A stretch of DNA of 64,000 bases from Dictyostelium discoideum (Eukaryota). This document shows, in pieces, positions 45,108-63,320 of the stretch. The stretch lies in the NCBI GenBank assembly GCA_000004695.1, contig CM000152.2, positions 1,344,001 to 1,408,000 on the forward strand, given 5' to 3'. Position 1 is the stretch's first letter. Every line of letters starts with the position of its first letter. The notes under the pieces were generated by a model. It was not told the origin of the DNA. It searched no databases and saw only the letters and a program-made list of their open reading frames with translations. Made by a program: the position numbers and the translations under genes.

Positions 45108-47685
45108 ATGTCAAGTGGTGATAGTAATTTAAAGAGAAGAAGAGGAGGAAATACTGGTCAATCATCAAAATCATATAATACATGGACTGATTATGAAGAA
45201 GATTTAGAAGAATCTGGTGAATTTAATCAATGTATGTTTTATTTTAATTATTTTAATTTTTTATTTTTTTTTTCATAAATTATAAAATAAAATAATAAAA
45301 TAATAAAATAAAATAAAACTATATAAGAAAAAAAATAAATTTTTTTAATAAATTATTAATAAAATTATTATAATAATAATTTTTATTTTTTTATTTTTTT
45401 TTTTAGCAATAAAAAAAACAACAAATACATCAAGTGCAACATTAACATCATCAGAAGAAAAAGGATCACTTTTAGATTATTCAAAGAGGTGTATATTAAA
45501 ACAAGATAATAAATCAAGACCAATTTGGGTTTGTCCAGATGGTCATATATTTTTAGAGACATTTTCAGCAATTTATAAACAAGCATCAGATTTTTTAGTT
45601 GCAATTGCAGAACCAGTTTGTAGACCACAAAATATACATGAATATCAATTAACACCTTATTCATTGTATGCAGCGGTCTCTGTTGGATTAGAAACCAATG
45701 ATATTATTACAGTTTTAGGGAGATTATCAAAATTAGCACTACCAAAAGAGGTTGAACAATTTGTTAGACAATGTACACAAAGTTATGGTAAAGTGAAGTT
45801 AGTATTACAAAAGAATAAATATTTTGTGGAATCTGCATACCCAGAGGTATTGGAATTCCTCTTGAAAGATTCATCAATTGCAACAGCAAGAATAAAACCA
45901 ACATTGGAAGAATCTGTGGTGGATCCAAAAACTGGTTTCATCATTAATAAAGAGGTTGTTACAGGTGCACAGATTTCAGGTGGTTTACAAGCGAATCAAT
46001 CATTGGATCCAGTTTTAAAGAATGATGCACTCTCTAATCTATTGGAGGAGGAGGAAGAGGATACAGTAAATAATTCAGATCAACATTTTCATTCATTTGA
46101 AATTGATCCACAACAAGTGGAAGAAGTGAAAAAACGTTGTATTCAATTGGATTATCCAGTGTTGGAAGAATATGATTTTCGTAATGATACAGTGAATCCA
46201 AATTTAAATATAGATTTAAAGCCAACAACAATGATTCGTCCATATCAAGAGAAATCTTTATCGAAAATGTTTGGTAATGGTCGTGCTCGTTCTGGTATTA
46301 TTGTATTGCCATGTGGTGCTGGTAAATCACTAAGTGGTATTACTGCAGCATGTACAGTGAAAAAGAGTATTCTGGTGTTGTGTACAAGTGCAGTGTCGGT
46401 GGAACAATGGAAATATCAATTTAAACTTTGGAGTAATATAGAGGAGAGACAAATTTCAAAATTCACAAGTGACAATAAGGAAAAGATTAGTAATGTTGCA
46501 GGTGTTACCATTACCACCTATACAATGGTTGCATTTGGTGGTAGACGTTCAGCAGAATCGTTAAAGATTATGAATGAAATTACCAATAGGGAATGGGGTT
46601 TGGTATTATTGGACGAGGTACATGTAGTACCAGCAGCAATGTTTAGAAAGGTTTTAACAGTGACAAAAGCCCATTGTAAATTGGGTTTAACAGCAACATT
46701 GTTACGTGAAGATGAAAAGATTCAAGATTTGAATTTCCTTATTGGTCCAAAACTTTATGAGGCAAATTGGTTGGATTTACAAAAAGCAGGTTTCCTTGCA
46801 AATGTTTCATGTTCAGAAGTTTGGTGTCCAATGACAGCGGAATTTTATAAAGAATATTTAATCAATGATTCTCAAGGAAAGAAGAAACTTCTATATACAA
46901 TGAATCCAAATAAATTCCGTGCTTGTGAATATTTAATTAGATTCCATGAACAAAGAGGTGATAAGATCATTGTTTTCTCTGATAATGTTTATGCACTTCA
47001 AAAGTATGCCAAAGGATTGGGTAGATATTTCATTTATGGACCAACATCAGGCCATGAAAGAATGAGTATTCTCTCGAAATTTCAACATGATCCAACCGTA
47101 AGAACCATTTTCATTTCAAAGGTTGGTGATACCTCTATCGATATTCCAGAGGCAACCGTTATCATTCAAGTTTCATCACATTATGGTTCACGTCGTCAAG
47201 AGGCACAACGTTTAGGTCGTATTCTTCGTCCAAAACCAAAATCTGATGGTCTTTACAATGCTTTCTTTTATTCTTTGGTTTCAAAAGATACTCAAGAAAT
47301 GTATTACAGTACAAAGAGACAACAGTTTTTAATTGATCAAGGTTATAGTTTTAAGGTCATTTCAGAGTTACCTGGTATTGATCAAGAAGTAAACTTAAAA
47401 TATTCTTCAAAACAAGATCAACTCGATCTATTGGCTCAAGTATTGGGTGAAGGTGAAGATAGTGGTAAAAATGAAATTTTAGAAGAAGATTTCGATGATA
47501 TTACTCGTGGTGCAAAGAAATCAAAATCTTCTGCTCCAACAGTTTCAAGAACTACTGGTGGTTCAACTAGAGCATTATCTGGTGGTAATGATATGAACTA
47601 TATGGAATATCAAGCTCCTGCAATTTATAAAAGTATTCCAACTCAACATGCATTATTTAAACAACGTGCTAAAAATAAACAATAA
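45108..47685 (+). CDS. repB: TFIIH/NER DNA helicase XPB (ERCC3/Ssl2), about 800 aa; 2 exons, join(45108..45231,45407..47685)
   Basis: Exon 1 ([41 protein letters not shown], then a T) has a GTATGT donor at 45232. A poly(T)AG acceptor sits at 45405-45406. Exon 2 encodes ...[65 protein letters not shown]..., running into the ORF at 45664..47685 (whose listed M is a TTG). Walker A (VLPCGAGKS), DEVH and motif VI ([11 protein letters not shown]) are present. The protein is colinear with human XPB over its full length. Confidence 0.9.
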
Positions 47686-47720
47686 AAAATAAATCAAAAA
47701 AATAAATCAAAAAAATAAAT

Positions 47721-47758
<38 letters not shown>

Positions 47759-48136
47759 AAAAGAAAAACTAAAAAAAAAAAGAAAAAAAAACTAAAAAAA
47801 AAAAAAAGAAAAAAGGAAATTTCCAAAAAAAAAAATCAATTATTTATTTGTATCTTATTTTTCAATCAATATTTTTTTTTTTTTTTTTTAATAATAAATA
47901 AATAATTATTATTTTTTTTTTATTATTTTTTTTTTAAATTAATATTTGTTTTCTTTTTTTCAATTTTTTTCATTTATTTTTGTTAAAAAAAAAAAAATTA
48001 GTAATAAAAAATAATTTCTAAGAATTATTTAAAAAAAAAAAAACATCAATTTTTTTTTAAACTTTTTTTTTTTTTTTATTAAAAAACACTCGTTTTTGAT
48101 TTTTTTTTTTTTTTTTTTTTTACCTCCCACCAGAAA

Positions 48137-50101
48137 ATGGATAACTCCAAATTATTTTTTAAAGTTTGGAAAAATGTTGTAATAAAACAAAGAATATTTT
48201 ATCATACAAGATTATATAATCTACATAGACTTGAAATATTTATTGATAATATTTCTGAACAAGTTCGACCAATAAAATCTTATCCATTCAAACAATACAT
48301 CCAATCAGTTAGTTTAATGATAGTTAATGATAAATCTCTAGTATTATCAATTATCAATGATTTATTAATTTCAACTGATGGTAATTGTAAATTCTCAATA
48401 TTTTTAGATAATGATGAAAGTGATGATGAAAAGAGTGATGACGAAAATGAAAATGAAAATGAAAATGAAAATGAAAATGAAAATGAAAATGAAAATGAAA
48501 ATGAAAATGAAAATGAAAATGAAAATGAAAATGAAAATGAAAATAAAATATCAAATAATATTATAAAAGTTCCAAGTAATTTTAAAAATTTTGTTTCAAC
48601 TTTTTTAAGTGAAAAAGATTTTCAAGTAGAAATTGATAAAACATTACCTTTGATTAAAATTAATAAATTGGATATTCCAGATTCTATTCAAATTAAACCG
48701 ATTAAAACAAATCTTTTCCCAAATGATATAAATTCAATTTCAATGAGTTTTAATTATGAAAAAGAATTAAAAAATTTACCAAAACAATTAAAACAGTTAT
48801 TCCTTTTCAATAGTTTTTCATTGAATAATGAATCTTTACCAGATGGGTTAGAAAAAATTGAATTTTATGGTGAACAAAAGTTTGAATTTAAAAATGGAAT
48901 TCTACCACAATCAGTTAAACATATTGGCTTTTTTAATGGATTGAAACAATTAATATCAAGTGATTGGTTACCACAAAATCTAGAATCAATCACATTCACA
49001 AAACCTTGTAAGTTAAATGAAAATAGTTTATTACCATTAAAAAATTTAAAATCAATTATATTTGGCCCATCATTTTCAGTCAATGAAGTTTTCGATTTTG
49101 AGAATAGAAAAAGCCTAATTCCAAACTCTGTTACAAATTTATCTATAAAATGTCCATTTGATAATTTATTTCCAAATGTTTTTCCAACTGAATTATTAGT
49201 TTTAAAAACATATCCCAAAGGAGGACCCAGAGCTACTGCCACTGCTAATAATGGTGACAACAACAATAATAATAATAATAATAATAAAAAAGAAATATTA
49301 ACAATTGAAAGTGATGTATTACCTAAAAAATTAATATCATTTACAATGGGACCAAATCAATATTTTAAATCCACAAATTCAATTCCACCAAGTTTAATTA
49401 AAATACATGGTATTAATTCTTTGGAACAATTAAATTTATTACCAAATAGTGTGGTTAATATTTCTTTATCCCGTCAAATACAAAATTTTAAAGCTGGTGA
49501 TATTCCATCACATATTCAAAAATTAAAAATTTTAACAAAAAATGATGGTATATTACAAAAAGGTATATTAAATGATTGTTTATCATTAAAATCTTTAAAC
49601 CTCATTCCAAATATAAAATATATTGAGATTGGAGCATTGCCACCAAAAATAGAGCAATTGGAAATCGGATTTTCTAATGACAAGCAATCACTTTCTTCAC
49701 AACATTCATTACCAGATTCATTGAAAATATTAATTTTAAGAGATGGATCATTTCCAAATAATTTATTTGAAACACCATTTAAAAATTTGGTAGCTTTAAA
49801 AATACATTCACTTTTAACTAAACCATTTCAATTTACTTGCCTTCCTCAATCATTAATGGTTTTAGATATTTCTACTCACAATCCAATTAAATGTAGTGAG
49901 CTTCCAATATCAATCAAATATTTAGTGGCTAGAGGAAATGGAGCACTTTTATTACCACTCCCACCATCTTTAAAATTAATTTTTGTTAATAGTTCTTTTC
50001 TTTATTTAAATAATCAACCAAAAATAGTTGAAACTATATTAAAAACTTTAAATTTTGCTCAAATGACAAAAATATTTGAAAAATTAATAAAATCTCTTTA
50101 A
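48137..50101 (+). CDS. FNIP-repeat-containing protein (Dictyostelium-type FNIP repeats), 654 aa
   Basis: ATG at 48137, single ORF. The protein has repeated LPxSLxxLxFGxxFNxxI-type units (LPDGLEKIEFYGEQKFEFKNGILPQSVKHIGFFNGLKQLISSDWLPQNLESITF...LPKKLISFTMGPNQYFKSTNSIPPSLIKIHGINSLEQ...). A (GAAAAT)17 tract at 48443..48544 encodes (NE)n. Confidence 0.75.
   Translation: MDNSKLFFKVWKNVVIKQRIFYHTRLYNLHRLEIFIDNISEQVRPIKSYPFKQYIQSVSLMIVNDKSLVLSIINDLLISTDGNCKFSIFLDNDESDDEKSDDENENENENENENENENENENENENENENENENENKISNNIIKVPSNFKNFVSTFLSEKDFQVEIDKTLPLIKINKLDIPDSIQIKPIKTNLFPNDINSISMSFNYEKELKNLPKQLKQLFLFNSFSLNNESLPDGLEKIEFYGEQKFEFKNGILPQSVKHIGFFNGLKQLISSDWLPQNLESITFTKPCKLNENSLLPLKNLKSIIFGPSFSVNEVFDFENRKSLIPNSVTNLSIKCPFDNLFPNVFPTELLVLKTYPKGGPRATATANNGDNNNNNNNNNKKEILTIESDVLPKKLISFTMGPNQYFKSTNSIPPSLIKIHGINSLEQLNLLPNSVVNISLSRQIQNFKAGDIPSHIQKLKILTKNDGILQKGILNDCLSLKSLNLIPNIKYIEIGALPPKIEQLEIGFSNDKQSLSSQHSLPDSLKILILRDGSFPNNLFETPFKNLVALKIHSLLTKPFQFTCLPQSLMVLDISTHNPIKCSELPISIKYLVARGNGALLLPLPPSLKLIFVNSSFLYLNNQPKIVETILKTLNFAQMTKIFEKLIKSL
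48443..48544 (+). repeat. (GAAAAT)17 hexanucleotide repeat, coding (NE)n
   Basis: Direct read of the sequence. It lies within the FNIP-repeat gene. The unit and frame are the same as the repeat at 40731..40784. Confidence 0.9.
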
Positions 50102-50182
50102 AATTATGTTAAAAAAATTTGTTTTTTTTTTTTTTATTGATACAAAAAATTTAAGGATAATTTTAAAAAATTTTATTTTATT

Positions 50183-50705
50183 TTATTTTCCATTGTAAAC
50201 TCTTAAGATGTATTTGATTCTGACTTGTTCAATTTTATAGACAATGAATTCATTGTGAGTACATGCTTTTGTTTAGAAAAAAAAAAAAAAAAAAGAAAGG
50301 AAAAGAAAAAAAAAAAAAAAAAGAAAGGAAAGAAAAAAAAAAAAAAAAAAAAAAAGTAAGTAAATTAGAGAATGAAATGATTAAAAAATATTTTAAAAAT
50401 GTAAACTTACAAGTTGAGAGACCAGTCTTTGAAATTTTACCTAATGGTACTACTAAACCATCAGAATCAGAAAGAGGATGATTACCATCTTTGTGAGGAG
50501 CAGCCATACCTAAAGCTTTTGTACTATGGAATGGATGTGGTGCCTCTTCCATATAGGTATCATGTTTCAATTCATTCATGTCACCAAGTGAAACTTCACA
50601 TAATAACATAAGTGCAGTTGGACAATCACTTGATGTGAAACAATAGCTGAATGATTTACTGTAATAAAAATAAAAAAATAAAGGTAAATAATTTGATAAT
50701 AATAA

Positions 50706-50804
<99 letters not shown>

Positions 50805-51481
50805 TAAAAAATAATAATAATAGTAATAATAAATAAATAAATAAATTACACTTACCTAATACAATCAGCAAAATAAATACCTTTACCAAATCTGTAACCA
50901 GTTTTTGGAGCAGATGGTGGAGCAATTCTTAATCCCTGCGAGACAATCGATACGAAATTAGTTAACCTACTACCATGCCATAAGAGTAATCTATTCTTAT
51001 CTTTTGCCCAAGGAGTGAAACGTTCACTTTCATTCTCTCTCTCAAGTGAAAGAATATCTTGAACACAGATATTGGTTCTAAATTGTTTATCTTGACTATT
51101 GGCAACATAATCTACCAAGGTTTTATAAACTACACTATCTTTATCAAGTGGAGTGAGTTTGGTTTTGAGTGTAATATATTGATTTTCAATCATGTTACCC
51201 TCGAGTGATTCAGTTTGCTTCTTAAGATTAGCGGCAATATCAACATCGATAAGAGTTTCAACCAATTGCATCTTGGCTTTAATTAGGTCGACTGTATCAA
51301 TTAATGGTGCAGTTTGATTACCAAAGTTATGAGGGATCAAAGTATAAAATCTAGTTGCACAATCTAAAAGTAAATTACGACTTGGATTAGCTGTGTTTAA
51401 AATGTCTTGAATTTCTGATAAAACCTTTTTAATAATAATAATAATAAAAATAGTTGGTAAATTTAAAATTATATTCAAAAT

Positions 51482-51512
<31 letters not shown>

Positions 51513-53588
51513 CTTACTTTATAACCTTCAATTAATTGTGATTTTTTAATTTTACCTAATGGCATTTTTTCAGTATCAACATTCATAGATTGTAATTGTT
51601 TTTTCATCATTTCAGGATCAAACATTAATTTAACTAAATCTAAAACTCTTTGTGGTAAACCTTCTTTCTTTGGTTCAATTTCTTGAGAGGTTGAAGTTGT
51701 TGTTGTTTCAGATTTCTTTCTCTTTAATACAGTTTCAACCAAGTTTTCTTCTTCCTCTTCATCATTACCATCATCTAAACTAATCATATAGTATTTACGT
51801 GGTAATTTTTTGAATTTATAACGATCTTCCCATTTTTGAGCAGTAAAGTATTCAAAACGCTCAGCAAACTCTGAAAGAGCAGACTCGTAAGAGGAGTAGG
51901 TTGTATCTTTTTGACCACCAATTTGATTGACACCAACACGACCCCATCTTAAATAGACGGTATATCTTTCTTTGCCTCTTTGTTTTAACATTTGAATTTG
52001 GTAGAATCTATTAGAGTTACTTTCAATATCCAAACTATTGAGCATAACATTCATTGCAGTATAGCCATATTTTTCATCATGATGAACATAGATTTCATAG
52101 CCACCATAATTAAAATCGTCATTAACTTTAAGAATGTTTGATCCTGGTTTTGGTTCTTTCTTTGGTACAATGGTTGGTTCTAACTCTCTCTTTTTGGATG
52201 AGGTGGTAGTGGTAGTGGTGGTTTGTCTTTTAACGACTTCAACTGGTTTGAAATATTTTTCAGTGAATAATAAAACATCATCAGCTAATTGAGATGGTGC
52301 AATAATAAATGGTTTTGAAACTAAAGTTTTTCTTAATTCAACACCTTTACCAGTTCTATTACATAAATCTTGAATCCAAGATGGTGGGAAAATTGGAATA
52401 TTATCAATAGCATTTTGAACCTTTTTAGTTTTTTTAGCCTTATTAACTTCCTCTTCACTTGAAATCATTAAAGTTGCATTTAATGGATCTTCAACAACTT
52501 CACCACCATGAGATTGAACTAAAGTTTTAATTTTCGTTGGGGCAATACCTAATACTTTTTCTGCACCAGCAATTGCAACTACCATATTAACACATTCATT
52601 ACCAACTGCTACTTCATCTTCATCTCTATTTGGATCTAAAGAAGATGTATCTTGAGTTTGTGCTTCTCCACTTGCATTTTCTTCAGTTTGTTGTTCCTTA
52701 TCTTGCTCTTGTTCCTCCTCTTCTTCTTCTTCCTCTTCTTCTTCACCAGCATCAGTATATTTTGTAGTTGATTTTGGATAATCTTTTGAATATTTAAAAG
52801 TTGAAAGGAATTTATTTTTTGAAAGATCATCAGGAAATTGAACAGCCCATCTTTCAATTGAATCACCTTTCCAATCACATTTTGTGAAACCTGAAATCCA
52901 ACCTTTACATTGATATTCGATACCATTGAAAAGTATATCGAAATTCTTACAAGTTGGACATCTACCTGGACGACCTTTTAACATCCAATCAGAGAGAGTA
53001 TGAAGTAAATGAACTGGTGATACCTTATCAACATAACCTTTATTATATTGAATGATGTTTTTAATTGCTGGTCCCTTCAAGTTATCGGCAATACTATCTT
53101 TAACTTCCCATAATGCCTTTAAATATTTCTCTCTTTGTACCTCTGATGCTGATTTTGGATCATACTTTTCAGATGAAAAATAAGTTGTTTTAATTGATAA
53201 TTGGTCTTCCCAACGAAGGTATTCCCAGTGAATTAAATCTGTAAATGATGGTACTTGTGGACATTTACATTTTAAATGATGCCATGATACATCCCTAATA
53301 ATAATAAAAAAAAAAATAAAAAAAAAAAAAAAATAAAAAAAAAATAATAATAATAAATAGTTAGTATAAAATAAAATAGGTTTTAAAAATTATCATATAA
53401 TATAAATGAATGATATCATTTGATAATTAAATAATATTAAATACAAACATTCCATCAAAGTGTTTTGATTTTGTTTTATAACCAATACGAACTGCTTCTT
53501 TATTAATACCTCTTTGACAGGTTGAACATGTTGATCTATCACTCTTTGCATATTCAATCTCATAAGGAGATGTATTTTTTGTTGCCAT
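50183..53588 (-). CDS. PARP1-like poly(ADP-ribose) polymerase (zf-PARP, PADR1, BRCT, WGR, regulatory and catalytic domains), about 938 aa; 5 exons, complement join(53449..53588,51518..53294,50856..51424,50411..50658,50183..50265)
   Basis: Exon 1 (MATKNTSPYEIEYAKSDRSTCSTCQRGINKEAVRIGYKTKSKHFDG, then AT of a split codon) has a GTTTGT donor. Exon 2 follows an ATTATTAG acceptor at 53295-53296 and begins (M)DVSWHHLKC. It is a zf-PARP finger; compare human YRVEYAKSGRASCKKC...MFDGKVPHWYHFSCF. Exon 2 also carries PADR1 (KGRPGRCPTCKNFDILFNGIEYQCKGWISGFTKCDW), BRCT and WGR (YEIYVHHDEKYGYTAMNVMLNSLDIESNSNRFYQIQMLKQ...YLRWGRVG). It ends ...IEGYK at a GTAAGT donor at 51517. Exon 3 holds the regulatory domain and the start of the catalytic domain (...LLDCATRFYTLIPHNFG...LLWHGSRLTNFVSIVSQGLRIAPPSAPKTGYRFGKGIYFADCI) and ends at a GTAAGT donor at 50855. 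Exon 4 reads SKSFSYCFTSSDCPTALMLLCEVSLGDMNEL...LVVPLGKISKTGLST and ends at a GTAAGT donor at 50410. Exon 5 reads STCTHNEFIVYKIEQVRIKYILRVYNGK. All phases are consistent. The catalytic motifs H-G-S, Y-F-A and E (in LLCEVSLG) are present. Confidence 0.85.
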
Positions 53589-54093
53589 TTTTCTTTTGCT
53601 ATTAACAATGATTAAAAAAAAAAAAATAAAGAAAAAAAAAAAAAAAATTATTTTTTTTGTTTTTTTTTTTTTCAAATTTCAAAAAAATAAAATAATAATA
53701 AAAAAAAAAAAAGATATTTCTCCGAATTTTAAGATTTCAAAAATTGTCATTATTTAAAGATATTTTTTTTTTTTTTTTTTTCAAGTAAAAAAAACTTTTT
53801 TTTTTTTTTATTTTTAATTATTATTGTTCAAAAACATCTAAAAATTTCTTAATGTACAATAAAAAAAAACTTTTTTTAATTTTTTATTAATTTATTTATA
53901 ATTTAATCATATTTTGGCATTAAATTATTTTACATTTTTTTTTTTTTTTTTTTTAATTATTTTTTATAAAAAAAAGAAACTAACCAACTGAAATGAATTT
54001 CTATAATTATTTGATATTTTTCAATTTTCCTCATCTCTATTGGATCTAATAAATTATTTTGGAAATAATGAATACCATTCTTTGACATAACTT

Positions 54094-54639
54094 TTAAAAT
54101 TGGTAAATCAGTTTCAGTGAACTATTCCTTTGGAATGTTTGATTAAAATATGTTAATTCTATACCCTCTTCTAATAAAATTCTCACTGTACACGAACAGG
54201 TACCATTATATTTCCTAATTCTTAATTCTTTTCCTTTTTGAAATGTATAAATTTTTATTTTATGTGAATTAATTTGAGTGGGAATTAAAATTAAATTAAT
54301 TTCATTCTCAGCTATAGCTAAAAAATTATCATTTGAAACATCTTGAATTTCAATTTTATCATTTATAGATAAATCAATTAAATATTCACCTTTTTCAGTA
54401 TTTTTAATTGGACATTTAAAATAATGATATGATTTACATTTTCTAACAATTCCATATTCTTTTTCACCAATATTCTTTAATATTCTATTATTTCTATATA
54501 ATATATATGGTACTATTAAAAAAATTAATAAAACAAATATAAATAGTATTAAAATGTAAAATAAAAATGGTACTAATAATATCAATATTAATAATATTGA
54601 TAACACAATTATTAATCTAAGTGTTATTCCATTTATCAA
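54094..54639 (-). CDS. Hypothetical membrane-protein gene fragment (TM segment plus conserved-looking C-terminal domain) with an unresolved or disrupted 5' structure
   Basis: The 181-aa ORF has no ATG (the listed M is a TTG) and no internal Met. It encodes a hydrophobic stretch followed by GEKEYGIVRKCKSYHYFKCPIKNTEKGEYLIDLSINDKIEIQDVSNDNFLAIAENEINLILIPTQINSHKIKIYTFQKGKELRIRKYNGTCSCTVRILLEEGIELTYFNQ. Immediately upstream (54640..54760) a different frame encodes an equally coding-like peptide (IGNLPIKAIKSDWFINLEEAKNQCCRKVYDYLIIEPSVAPTLEKEIIDKWNNT*). It ends about 20 nt into the ORF, so the two frames abut without any possible intron. Confidence 0.4.
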   Translation of the reverse strand: MINGITLRLIIVLSILLILILLVPFLFYILILFIFVLLIFLIVPYILYRNNRILKNIGEKEYGIVRKCKSYHYFKCPIKNTEKGEYLIDLSINDKIEIQDVSNDNFLAIAENEINLILIPTQINSHKIKIYTFQKGKELRIRKYNGTCSCTVRILLEEGIELTYFNQTFQRNSSLKLIYQF

Positions 54640-55102
54640 TGATTTCTTTTTCTAGTGTTGGAGCTACACTTGGTTCAATAATTAAATAATCATAAACTTT
54701 TCTACAACATTGATTTTTAGCTTCTTCTAAATTTATAAACCAATCTGATTTTATTGCTTTTATTGGTAAATTTCCAATTTCTAAACTAAATTTACCTTAA
54801 TATTTTTTTTTTCAAAAATTTAAAAAAAATAAATAATTAAGTAAATTTAAACAAAAAAAAAAAAAAAATAATTCAATCATATCATTATCATGTAAAAAAT
54901 TTCTTTCCTTTGATTTATTTTTTCTTCTTTTTCTATTATATTTAAGAATTATTTTAAATAATGAATTTTTCTTTCAATTACAAGATTGTTTAATAGTTTT
55001 TTGAAGTCCATAATTAAAAAATGAGATGTTATATATATAGTAATAGGTTTTTTTTACATTTACCACAATAAATTTGTAATTACAAATTTTAATTTTTTTT
55101 TT

Positions 55103-55144
<42 letters not shown>

Positions 55145-55680
55145 TTACACACAATGCGATAATTCAAAGTCCAAAAAAAAAAAAAATTCAAAAAATAATC
55201 ATATAAATATAAAAATTAAATATAGTTATCAATGTTTAATTTGGAATTTAATAATGGAACCACCAACTGTTATTAACTGTCCTCTGTTCTTTTGAGTGTG
55301 AAAATAAATGAAAATCTTTTTTTGATGTTTTTGGAAATAATGTTGTGATTTTTTTTTTTTTTTTAATTAATTTAAAAACGATATGCAATTCACGAGACAT
55401 TTTAGATATTTTCTGAAAAAAAATATCAACCGAAAATTAATCAATTTTTTTTTTTTTTTTTTTGTTTTTTTTTTGAAAAAAAAAATACACATCTAGATCA
55501 AAATAAAAAAGATTGGTTGCCGAAACTTTTTTTCTTTTTTTTTTAAAACAGATATTTTACACTGAGTTTTTTTTAAAAATTCGAAAAAAAATCAAAATAA
55601 ATCAGTTTTTTTTATTTTTTTCTTTTTTTTTTTATTTATTATTTTTTTTTTTTTTTTTTTTTCAACCATTATTTTTAAAA

Positions 55681-55866
<186 letters not shown>

Positions 55867-55876
55867 TAATAAAATA

Positions 55877-58800
55877 ATGAAAATAATAAATTTAATAATA
55901 TTATTTTTTATATTTTTTATAAATTTAATAAATTGCCAGTTTGAATATGATGGTATTAAAATTTATGATTTAACAGAAAAACAAACTTTAACAAATTATA
56001 AGAGTATACTAAATGTGGGATATTATTGTGGTTTTTATTTAAATTTATTAATCGTAGATGAAAGAGTTGATCAAAGTTTTTATGAAGCAACTTTTTCTTA
56101 TAGTAATTTAGAGGTAATGGTTAACAGTTATAATGTACTTTATGAAAATTCAACATCAAAATTATATCAAGTATTTATTCTTTCCTCGAAAATTGGTATT
56201 ATAGAATCATTATCATTACAAACTTTAATTGATGGTACAATACAATTTCAATATCCATTGGAAAATAATTTAACATGTATTGAAATTGATGTGGATAATT
56301 TAAATATAACAGTACTTCAAAATAATAATAATTTCGATTGGAATGCCTTTCAATCATTCTATGCATTCATTAAAATCCAAGGTTTAATATATCCAGTAGA
56401 AATTGTAATTGGTAATCCATTTTATATAGAACATATTTATAGTGATGTTTATAAAGTTACATTTTCAGAATATACTGGTATAGATTTAATTAAAGATGAT
56501 TTATATAAAGATTGGAATATTTCATTATTTTTCACTTTTGATCAAGTTGAACCAATAAATGTTTATATTCCATCATTCTATGGTAGTAATAATAATAATA
56601 ATATAAATCAAAATCAAATATTAAATTTTGAAACATTTCCAAAAGATACTTTAAATGTCATACAATGTATGGGTGAAAGGTATGGACCATTATTCAAGTT
56701 TACTTTAACTTCTCCAAATATAAAGAGACCATTACAATTTATAGATCAAAATTTTGCTTATCCAAATTTAATATCATCATTGGGTGGTGATAATTATTTT
56801 CAATATATTGGTTATTTCAATACTATGTATGCAAATTATATTTCAGCTACAAATTATACATTTAAAGTTCAAAATAATGATAAAATCCAAGATTTCAATA
56901 CAACTCCTTTAATGATTAAAGATAAATTTACTGGATCTACTAGTTTTCCAATGCATATAGATCCTCCAACTTATTTTATAAATGGACCAAATCTTTTAGT
57001 GGTTTCTATTAATGGTATAAATACAGCACAATATGGTTTGGGATTATTTCATTATCAATATGCTGAAAAAGATATTTACCCAAATGCACCATTTGGTTTT
57101 TCACTTGGTAATAATTTAAATTTTAATTATAATGTATCTTTACCATTCAATTATTTAACTGTATTAAATGACTTTCATCCAAATCTAATATTTCAAGAAT
57201 ATTCAAATTTACAAACTTCAATTGAAGTTTATGATCTTCAAAGAAGAAGTAAATATTATATTTAAACTTTATTTGTATATACATATTACAACAAATTGAA
57301 TATCAAATAACATAACAATATTAATAATTATTAATTTTATTTAAATATCTATAGATTTAACTCTTAAAATTCAATCAATTGATTCTTTAGAACTTATTCA
57401 TTTATATGATTCATTTTTTTTAGTTAGAATTTCTATAATTTCACCAAATGGATTATTTAAAATTGTAATAGATGATAGTATTGAATTTAAATCTTTAGAA
57501 TATTTAGTTTCTGGTACTATATATAATGGAAACTATGAATTTAAAATGAATTTATTTGGATCTTATCTCAAATTTGTTTTATATGATAATGTTGAATTTT
57601 CACAAACTTTTTATGAAGGTGATTATTATTCAATTAATCCTATTAAAAGAATTATTTTACCAGATTTAATTAGTAATGGTAGGTTTTTTTTTAAAAATCT
57701 AATTTATTTTATTAAAAAATTTTTTTTTTTTAATTAACATATTAATCATTATTCAACCCATATATATAGTTAATTTTGATATTTATAAAATTGAAAATTT
57801 TAAATTTTTAAAAATTGATAATCCAATTGATATTACAAATAAATCAATATCAAATAGATTATATTTTAATTATTCAAATATTGATAATGTTAATAGACCA
57901 ATTGGGTTTATATTATTGGATCCATTATCATTTGATACAGTTAATCCATTTTTATCCAATAAAATTTATTATGCGAAATGGGTAAAAGAAATTGGATTAT
58001 TTGTAGTTGATTTTATAATACCTGCAAATACTCAACCAGGTTTATTACCATGGATGTTATATTTTAATTACAATGTTCAATTATTTAGCTCAAATTTACC
58101 ATTGGAAAGTCAATATCAATTGAATGTAACTTCAGACAATGTAGATTTATATGGTCCAATCTTTTCAAAGATTCAAAAATACCCAGGAAATGGTGATTCA
58201 GGTGTTGGCTGGGATATTACAATCTCTGATCCAATTAATGGCTTCACCAATGGATTTATAGTTGTAATGGGGTCAATTGATAATTCAATTTATAATATTT
58301 CAATTGGATCACCAGTTAGAGGTACCCCTGGTATTCAATCATTTGACTATAGTTTAACAATTATTAAACCTGGTGAATCATGTATCAATCAAGATTATGT
58401 TATTACTCAAGTGATTTTATATGATTCTATGGGTGTAAATTCAACATTTTCAATACAAACTCTCTATCCAAATCCTATTAAGAATCCTTTTATAAATTAT
58501 TTAGATGACATTTCAATCAATAGTTTTACTACAACACGTTGTAATTCATTAGATAATACACCACCATCTATTTCAAGTTTTGTAGTTTCAAGAGAATCAA
58601 TTGACCTTTTTCAATCAAATAGAATTGTTGAATTTAATTTTACAATTACAGATGGTGAAAGTGGTATTAAAATAAACTCTCAACATCCAAAAATTTATCT
58701 AACTAGCAAAGATTTAACAATTTTAGAATGTCAAACAAATATTTCAACCATTATAAGTTTATATACTGTTTCCTATTATTGCAGTATTGAATTACCATTT

Positions 58801-60312
58801 AAAGGTAGTGATAGTGGTTATATAATTTCAATTTATGGTTTATTAAATAATGGTGGATCTTATAAAGGTTATTCTTCAGATGAACTAAATAGTTTAAATT
58901 TACCTTGGTATATTGATGTAATGAATTCAATTAATAATAATCCAGTACCCATAATTACCAATACTAGCTCAATCACTATTTATGGTGGTGATTTATGGGT
59001 ATTTGGTTTTGGATTTAATAACAGTCAAACGATTACAGTTGAAATCAATTCAAAACAAATTACAATACCAACAAATTCAATTACTTGTTATAACACTGCA
59101 TTATTAATTTCAAATTTACGACCAACAAATAATTCATTCACCATTAAAGTTGAAAATTCAAATACTTGGGTAGTTTTTCCAATTAATTATAATTTACCAC
59201 CTATAGTTGAAATTACTTCCTCTTCAGAATCTACTTCTTCTTCCTCCTCCTCCTCCTCTTCGGGTTCTGAAATCGAAGATCAATGTTCCATATTAAATTG
59301 TGGTAATAGTAGTCAAGGTTATTGTAATGTTTATTCATGTATTTGTTATAACCCATGGTCTGGAAAAGATTGCACTCAAAAACAAATTGTTATTTCACCT
59401 CCAACTATAAATACTACAGATCCAACATCTAATATTCCAACTTTAGATAATAATAATATTTTATATAATTCATTAATTTCTATTGTATCACTTAGAGAAT
59501 TGGATTTCAATGGAAAGAGTATTAAATCATTTACATTTGATAATAAATGGTTATTAACAGAATTAGGTAAAAACAAGAATCAATACTATACAAATATTAC
59601 AACATCCTCACTGTCAACTCCAAATTTAATGGTTACAACCAATATTACAGTAACATTGGAATGGTTTACTGAATTAACCAGTGTTATTTTTGCTAAAAAA
59701 AATCTAACAATGAATCCATTTTCTGTTAAATATACAATAGAAATTTCTAAATATGCATTTTCTGGCCAATTAAATCAACTTGAATTGGTAATGTCCGCTT
59801 TATTTGGATCTTCAAAAACTAAAGACGTTTGTGCATCTCAAGAATTTATAAGCGAAAATGAAAATGATTATTTAAAAATTCAAATTCAAGATCATTCTTT
59901 AAATGGTAGATTTATTAAACGTGCATATATTGATTCAAAAGTAGCAACTGTTTCAAATGTACTTTTAGATTCTTCTATGAATAAAATTGAACAATCCAAT
60001 GAAATATCACCAAACCAAGTTCAATCTTTTGTTGGAATTATAATACCAATTTACAGTTTTAAAGCATTGATCGACCCTGATTTTAGCGTTTTATTAGATA
60101 GTAATGAAAATACAAATGAAAATAATTCAAATTCTGTTTGTACTAGTGGTTCATCTGGTTTATCAAATTCTCAATTAGCTGGTATAGTTATTGGATCCTT
60201 TGGTTTTGCATCTGTTATTGCAATTTCAATTGCTTACTATTTTTATAAAAAGAGAAAAAATCAAAATTTCATTAAAAATGTTCAAACTAAATTAAAACCA
60301 ATGAACCAATAA
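55877..60312 (+). CDS. Large secreted type-I transmembrane glycoprotein (about 1412 aa) with an EGF-like Cys module and a single C-terminal TM helix; 3 exons, join(55877..57248,57355..57678,57770..60312)
   Basis: ATG at 55877 with a signal peptide (MKIINLIILFFIFFINLINCQ). Exon 1 ends ...DLQRR (plus an A) at a GTAAAT donor at 57249. Exon 2 follows a CTATAG acceptor at 57353-57354 and is in frame with the ORF at 57546..57737; it ends ...LISN (plus a G) at a GTAGGT donor at 57679. Exon 3 follows a TATATAG acceptor at 57768-57769 and joins the frame of the ORF at 57916..60312 (listed M is a TTG). Many N-x-S/T sequons are present. The EGF-like module reads CSILNCGNSSQGYCNVYSCICYNPWSGKDCTQ. The TM helix (LAGIVIGSFGFASVIAISIAYYFY) is followed by a short basic tail (KKRKNQNF). 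Confidence 0.7.
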
Positions 60313-60419
60313 TAATAATAATAATTTGGTGAATAAAAATGGTTTTTATCGATAATAATTAAATAAATAAAAGCACACACACATGAATTTTTTATAAGGA
60401 TAAATAAAATTTTATTATA

Positions 60420-63320
<2,901 letters not shown>

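Follow-up and report, generated by a model that had tools for sequence, protein, structure and literature searches.

A very probable non-processed pseudogene upstream of a PARP gene in Dictyostelium discoideum, with differently lesioned orthologues in sister lineages

The window analyzed here is a stretch of 64,000 nucleotides from Dictyostelium discoideum (assembly GCA_000004695.1, contig CM000152.2, positions 1,344,001 to 1,408,000 of the forward strand), and all positions are counted from its first letter. It is AT-rich (22% G+C), with a stop probability of 0.093 per codon, and dictyostelid-like in composition. A PARP gene (50852-53675, minus strand), syntenic in all relatives, has an N-terminal exon with MATKNTSPYEIEYAKSDRSTCSTCQRG (zf-PARP), after which comes an ORF of 742 codons that continues across an intron. 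A large gene on the plus strand (55877-60312) contains ORFs of 462 and 798 aa; its orthologue in D. discoideum ACTFIW is a protein of 1408 aa with ComC_SSD and several DUF domains. An ATG-initiated ORF of 654 aa was also present at 48137-50101 (plus strand), and its positional counterpart in D. citrinum showed a weak match to FNIP repeats. Directly upstream of the PARP gene, on the same strand and divergent from the large gene, the following features were identified.

53957..55011, minus strand: the whole relic, of two-exon origin, very probably a pseudogene; ancestral ATG at 55011-55009 and ancestral stop at 53959-53957, from tblastn and DNA alignments
54889..55011, minus strand: exon 1 relic in frame B, 18 nt shorter than in relatives
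54949..54951, minus strand: in-frame TAA at exon 1 codon 21, from translation; the Logan haplotype likewise reads AAT TAA
54887..54888, minus strand: destroyed 5' splice site, GT to AT; GT in ACTFIY, ACTFIZ and both D. citrinum loci
54796..54888, minus strand: AT-rich intron relic of 93 nt, aligning to the sole intron of the intact gene at locus L007
54785..54786, minus strand: 1-nt deletion four codons into exon 2, which moves the ancestral reading to genomic frame A
54617..54796, minus strand: frame A; matched by residues 47-95 of the intact protein P0001 at 61% identity
54647..54651, minus strand: run of five A's with a +1 insertion (four A's in all five relatives), the true junction of frames A and B
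54496..54630, minus strand: coding relic of a two-helix transmembrane hairpin (orthologue residues 100-144), from AlphaFold helices mapped via tblastn coordinates
54094..54651, minus strand: frame B, beginning KKSLINGITLRL; covers the transmembrane hairpin and the larger part of the C-terminal domain and ends with 12 out-of-frame codons and TAA
54140..54141, minus strand: second 1-nt deletion, at codon 263 (AATC-AAAC against AATCAAAAT), leading from frame B into the frame of A and C
54122..54124, minus strand: TAT to TAG nonsense change at codon 269 of the ancestral frame; TAT (Tyr) in ACTFIW and ACTFIZ
53957..54121, minus strand: frame C (the genomic frame of A), FTETDLPILKVMSKNG to SWLVSFFYKK and a stop; the C-terminal 54 codons, matched by P0001 residues 251-321 at 76% identity

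Translation of the minus strand in three frames agreed with a sequence-only reading of this DNA, which had described two abutting coding-like frames. Frame A (codon starts mod 3 = 1) reads GKFSLEIGNLPIKAIKSDWFINLEEAKNQCCRKVYDYLIIEPSVAPTLEKEIIDKWNNT up to a stop at 54619-54617 (also given as GKFSLEIGNLPIK, ending in IIDKWNNT and the stop), and in frame B (mod 3 = 0) an open stretch of 185 codons starts at about 54651 and ends with the TAA at 54096-54094. Frame B was without Met, as had been stated, and encoded a hydrophobic stretch of about 45 aa followed by a non-repetitive part of about 125 aa; the overlap of the two frames measured about 33 nt rather than 20. Two features had escaped that reading: a third coding piece on the minus strand (FTETDLPILKVMSKNGIHYFQNNLLDPIEMRKIEKYQIIIEIHFSWLVSFFYKK and a stop, 54121..53957), which returns to frame A, and the TAA interrupting exon 1. 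The ATG at 55011 opens the peptide MDFKKLLNNL in frame B, which continues with VIERKIHYLK up to the TAA at 54951-54949. A splice donor placed directly after MDFKKLLNNL, at GTAATT (about 54990), did not hold up: these six letters code for Val-Ile, and they do so in all orthologues (NNLVIERK). Since the 93 nt of the intron relic are divisible by three, the long ORF shares genomic frame B with exon 1 and with the first four codons of exon 2. In mononucleotide shuffles, open stretches never reached 185 codons, which puts frame B far beyond chance; stretches of at least 59 codons appeared about 35 times, so that frame A is insignificant by itself and its assignment rests on homology.

For homology searches, frames A, B and C were fused into one query. 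Single proteins matched 99% of its length (E-value 7e-128), including P0001 (324 aa, D. cf. discoideum ACTFIZ) at 78% identity, P0002 and P0003 (329 and 330 aa, D. citrinum), and P0006 (325 aa, D. firmibasis) at 47% identity. A Logan ORF of 170 aa was 99% identical to frame B. Conversely, tblastn of P0001 on the window matched residues 1-20, 47-95, 93-267 and 251-321 in alternating frames, with 85% identity over residues 1-20 and 61-83% over the three exon-2 pieces (83% for residues 93-267).

ACTFIZ (D. cf. discoideum) and two genomes of D. citrinum were found to carry intact syntenic copies, each encoding one continuous membrane protein of 324-330 aa. In its intact form the gene is divided into two exons by a single intron of about 143 nt (at L007, a span of 1118 nt for 324 codons). 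In ACTFIZ, ACTFIY, ACTFIW and D. citrinum the gene is the direct upstream neighbour of PARP. The window shows the same order, with PARP exons at about 50.8-53.6 kb of the minus strand, and the DNA on both sides of the locus aligns for L007, L008 and L013; these copies are orthologues. The D. firmibasis copy is a paralogue located elsewhere, next to an SNF2 helicase gene and within a tandem cluster.

These comparisons bear on whether the pieces could be two or three independent small genes. Every piece is open in its own frame, as such genes would be, but frames A and B are without Met and the pieces are contiguous within one exon in four relatives. The sequence-only reading had proposed to see whether the two peptides are contiguous in other dictyostelids, and they are so, in one frame and one exon, in the orthologues P0001, P0002 and P0003; the probability of independent genes is vanishingly small. 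Introns of the GT...AG type joining A to B or B to C were also considered and rejected: no plausible donor precedes the frame-A stop, and the corresponding junctions lie inside one exon in the orthologues.

Lesions were placed by base-level DNA alignment to the orthologous loci of the relatives, and the window was found to carry at least six disabling changes relative to these copies. In exon 1, where relatives read LKDPNHNSLHYNIEKEEK, the window reads LK(stop)FLNIIEKEEK; the net loss of 18 nt corresponds to one or two deletions, the alignment being ambiguous. At the donor, the window has TACATG/ATAATG against ATG/GTAACC, ATG/GTAATA and CAA/GTAATA, and the acceptor AG of the intron is kept at 54797-54796. 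The exon-2 deletion is seen in GTAAATTTAG-TTTAGAA of the window compared with GTAAATTCAGATTTAGAA (L008), GTAAATTTAGAATTAGAA (L013) and GTAAATTTAAATTTAGAA (L007), and it brings a TAG at 54783-54781 into the mRNA frame. A MAFFT global alignment had put this deletion at the acceptor; local comparison puts it between 54786 and 54785. At the A-run, the window has CTAGAAAAAGAAATC and the relatives CTTG-AAAAGAAATC. The frame A described by the sequence-only reading thus corresponds to 45 codons between the exon-2 deletion and the A-run insertion (ancestral coding part 54785..54652), and its tail EIIDKWNNT, up to the stop, is out-of-frame read-through. According to the structural model described below, this part encodes beta-strands and helix alpha-2 of a predicted domain resembling a double-stranded RNA-binding domain (dsRBD). 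The predicted domains of the parent protein are shared among the frames, with the second half of the dsRBD-like domain in A, the hairpin and the larger part of the beta domain in B, and the last strands and terminal helix in C.

Six Logan contigs from six sequencing runs (SRR26869257, SRR26869258, SRR26869268, SRR28564540, SRR28564541, SRR28564542) were 99.7-99.9% identical to the window and carried all lesions, differing from it only at three SNPs and in the length of one T-run. An otherwise intact gene disturbed by assembly or sequencing indels might have been suspected since short A/T runs hold two of the three single-base changes, one in the A-run at 54651-54647 and the other in a CAAA stretch at 54141. 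However, every lesion was recovered in six contigs assembled independently from six runs, which excludes an assembly error as put forward in the sequence-only reading, and the GT to AT and TAT to TAG substitutions and the 18-nt loss are atypical of homopolymer errors; we consider such an artefact exceedingly unlikely. The six contigs represent one haplotype, making two haplotypes of the window's lineage in total, and an intact allele could still segregate in its population.

Programmed ribosomal frameshifting or another form of recoding that yields a full-length protein was the further option raised for this locus. The A-to-B junction does fall within a GAAAAAG run, and all three pieces remain recognizable as coding sequence. 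Recoding would nevertheless require three frameshifts of different sign, read-through of TAA 54951 and TAG 54124, and splicing of an AT-AG intron, and these requirements are conserved in no relative: ACTFIZ and D. citrinum have plain ORFs with four instead of five A's at the junction, and ACTFIY and ACTFIW are without the indels of the window. The junction would need a +1 shift, and to our knowledge GAA AAA GAA is not among the +1 sites described for Ty1, antizyme or Euplotes. Nor are the frames otherwise intact, given the two in-frame stops, the lost donor and two more indels. With its destroyed donor and in-frame stops set against plain ORFs in relatives, we rejected recoding, whose probability is close to negligible.

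The region 53957..55011 is very probably a non-processed pseudogene with at least six disabling lesions, at its ancestral position upstream of the PARP gene, and the locus is a case of ordinary gene decay, not of recoding or assembly error. It shows homology to a functional gene (P0001, 61-85% identity in four pieces), it carries a TAA at codon 21, GT to AT at the donor, three single-base indels (-1, +1, -1) and a TAG at codon 269, and these lesions are present in the organism, as seen in the six Logan contigs. Synteny with the PARP and upstream genes places it at the ancestral position, and this position together with the retained intron shows that it is not a retrocopy. The preferred interpretation of the sequence-only reading, a frameshifted gene or pseudogene, was borne out by orthologues that encode both peptides contiguously; its picture of a single recent frameshift was right in that the gene is frameshifted, but there are three changes of frame within a decay involving multiple lesions.

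The ancestor was a gene of two exons and a short intron, encoding about 325 aa with a predicted dsRBD fold, membrane hairpin and beta-rich C-terminal domain. In the lineage of the window it has gathered an early stop with the loss of 18 nt, the GT to AT change of the donor, three single-base indels (-1, +1, -1) and a nonsense codon, each an independent lesion. The single-base indels carry the recognizable coding sequence between genomic frames, in the order B, A, B, A, and the abutting frames arise from these switches. Normal initiation can yield no protein beyond an N-terminal peptide of 20 residues, and the locus has probably lost its protein function. Its loss was plausibly tolerated owing to redundancy with intact paralogues of the family elsewhere in the genome.

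A dead protein gene might still be kept as a non-coding RNA, for the 20-residue peptide from the old start, or as a promoter or spacer for PARP and the divergent gene. The relic retains its ATG, an upstream region with T-runs and TATA-like sequence and an AT-rich 3' end, and the sequence between the lesions is still 90-97% identical to that of relatives. Such retained similarity is, however, as expected of a young pseudogene. There is no sign of extra conservation, with ORFs as the features sought, and over its full length the 2-kb interval aligns with L007 at 76% compared with about 90% for the flanking genes; a retained role of this kind is very unlikely.

Beyond the disabling lesions of the pseudogene, 16 substitutions could be polarized to the window branch, 5 synonymous and 11 non-synonymous. 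P128L, Y244C and P290Q hit positions that are invariant in the four intact proteins, which may be a sign of relaxed constraint on this branch. Pairwise dN/dS was 0.45-0.64 among intact copies (0.36-0.64 over all pairs), indicating a constrained but fast-evolving gene; between the window and its relatives it was 0.39-0.49, no higher than among intact pairs, as a crude statistic on a short branch.

Lesions were also found in the orthologues of D. discoideum ACTFIW (GCA_054859355.1; L013:5001-6025) and D. cf. discoideum ACTFIY (GCA_054859205.1; L008:4001-5033). The ACTFIW orthologue has an 8-nt loss over the junction of exon 1 and the donor (no GT), a -1 indel at codon 71 and CAA to TAA at codon 306, and is without the exon-1 lesion, the three indels and the TAG of the window. 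The ACTFIY orthologue has a -1 indel at codon 145 and GAA to TAA at codon 268. The single-base indels in these long-read assemblies could be assembly errors, which is less likely for the nonsense substitutions. Of the four lineages sampled in the discoideum complex, three thus carry different disabling lesions, with ACTFIZ and D. citrinum intact, and since the lesions in ACTFIW and ACTFIY differ from those of the window, the gene has decayed repeatedly. Deposited gene models bridge the lesions by apparently invented introns (P0020, 278 aa; P0005, 250 aa). In a comparison of window positions 47000-61500 with L013, identity was 96.6% in the upstream coding gene and 91-93% on the PARP side; set against the 99.7-99.9% of the Logan contigs, these values place the window and ACTFIW in distinct lineages of the species complex. 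A literature search on the new Dictyostelium assemblies turned up nothing pertinent.

The earliest of the lesions may have been the one that removed the splice donor. GT is absent at the donor in both the window and ACTFIW; its position is deleted in ACTFIW, so that a shared and a separate loss look alike. Codon 290 is CAA in the window, AAA in ACTFIW and CCA elsewhere, and together with the missing donors this would fit a first hit in the common ancestor of the window and ACTFIW.

The parent protein belongs to a small family that appears confined to group-4 Dictyostelium species: a profile search of 1.84 billion representative proteins recovered 12 members only (E <= 0.001), and all members whose source was looked up were 'hypothetical proteins' of group-4 Dictyostelium. 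Pfam searches with the three window pieces and four intact relatives returned only sub-threshold noise, and a PDB sequence-profile search gave no matches. Three paralogues form a tandem cluster beside an SNF2-type helicase gene (L012:1-4050 in ACTFIW, L011:1406-5332 in D. firmibasis), and by tblastn the SNF2-adjacent members of ACTFIW L012 were 42% and about 30% identical to P0001. Short family models in other strains (P0013, 276 aa; P0015, 247 aa; P0016, 185 aa) may represent more decay or poor gene models.

An AlphaFold model built from the alignment of 12 sequences had a mean pLDDT of 79.9 and replaced an earlier, poor model from four sequences (pLDDT 45). Residues 1-85 adopt an alpha-beta-beta-beta-alpha arrangement followed by a linker, two hydrophobic helices span 100-118 and 120-144, and a beta-rich domain (149-300, pLDDT about 80-95) precedes a C-terminal helix. 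Fold comparison of the C-terminal domain gave SH3-like partial matches only. The predicted N-terminal domain has the alpha1-beta1-beta2-beta3-alpha2 fold of a dsRBD, although the dsrm HMM (PF00035) matched none of four members at E <= 10; one family member showed a weak match to Dicer_dimer (E = 0.09). The dsRNA-contact motifs (the GPxH loop and KKxAK at the start of alpha-2) were absent from the alignment inspected, in which alpha-2 starts with N-L-E-E-A-K or F-K-G-V-S-E. This absence of the canonical RNA-contact motifs points to a putative, non-canonical dsRBD that would bind protein.

On a more speculative reading, this would be a conflict-driven family of fast turnover with a membrane-tethered dsRBD fold, restricted to group-4 Dictyostelium, and the independent inactivations in three lineages out of four would reflect adaptive or balancing loss of the kind known from immune or recognition genes, not the neutral decay of a redundant duplicate. 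We regard this as unlikely.

In an annotation, 53957..55011 is to be given as a single pseudogene; two or three separate ORFs, or a patched gene model, would misrepresent it. The pseudogene itself is ordinary and well supported and leaves current understanding unchallenged; of minor interest are that sister lineages show repeated, independent decay and that the parent family has an unusual predicted architecture. The locus offers a clean, datable case of a young, lineage-specific gene that has decayed repeatedly within the D. discoideum species complex, and the uncharacterized family, with its predicted dsRBD fold, membrane hairpin and beta domain, is open to study where the PARP-adjacent copy is intact.

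Among known systems, the predicted N-terminal domain is closest to the dsRBD (PF00035, dsrm), especially to the non-canonical, protein-binding dsRBD2 of DCL4, DRB7.2 and dsRBD5 of Staufen. It differs from dsRBD proteins in its lack of a dsrm sequence match and in its predicted tethering to a membrane hairpin, which is unusual. The two overlapping frames that jointly encode one protein resemble programmed +1 frameshift genes such as antizyme, Ty1 and those of Euplotes, whereas the window locus has many other lesions, a shift that is not conserved and no recognized shift site. Primate GULO exemplifies the non-processed pseudogene at an ancestral locus, and the window locus is like that class in its syntenic position, its intron relic and its several independent lesions. 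In contrast to a strictly unitary pseudogene, diverged paralogues (25-42% identity) persist in a related D. discoideum genome, and unlike the GULO type, the sister lineages of the window have also decayed independently.
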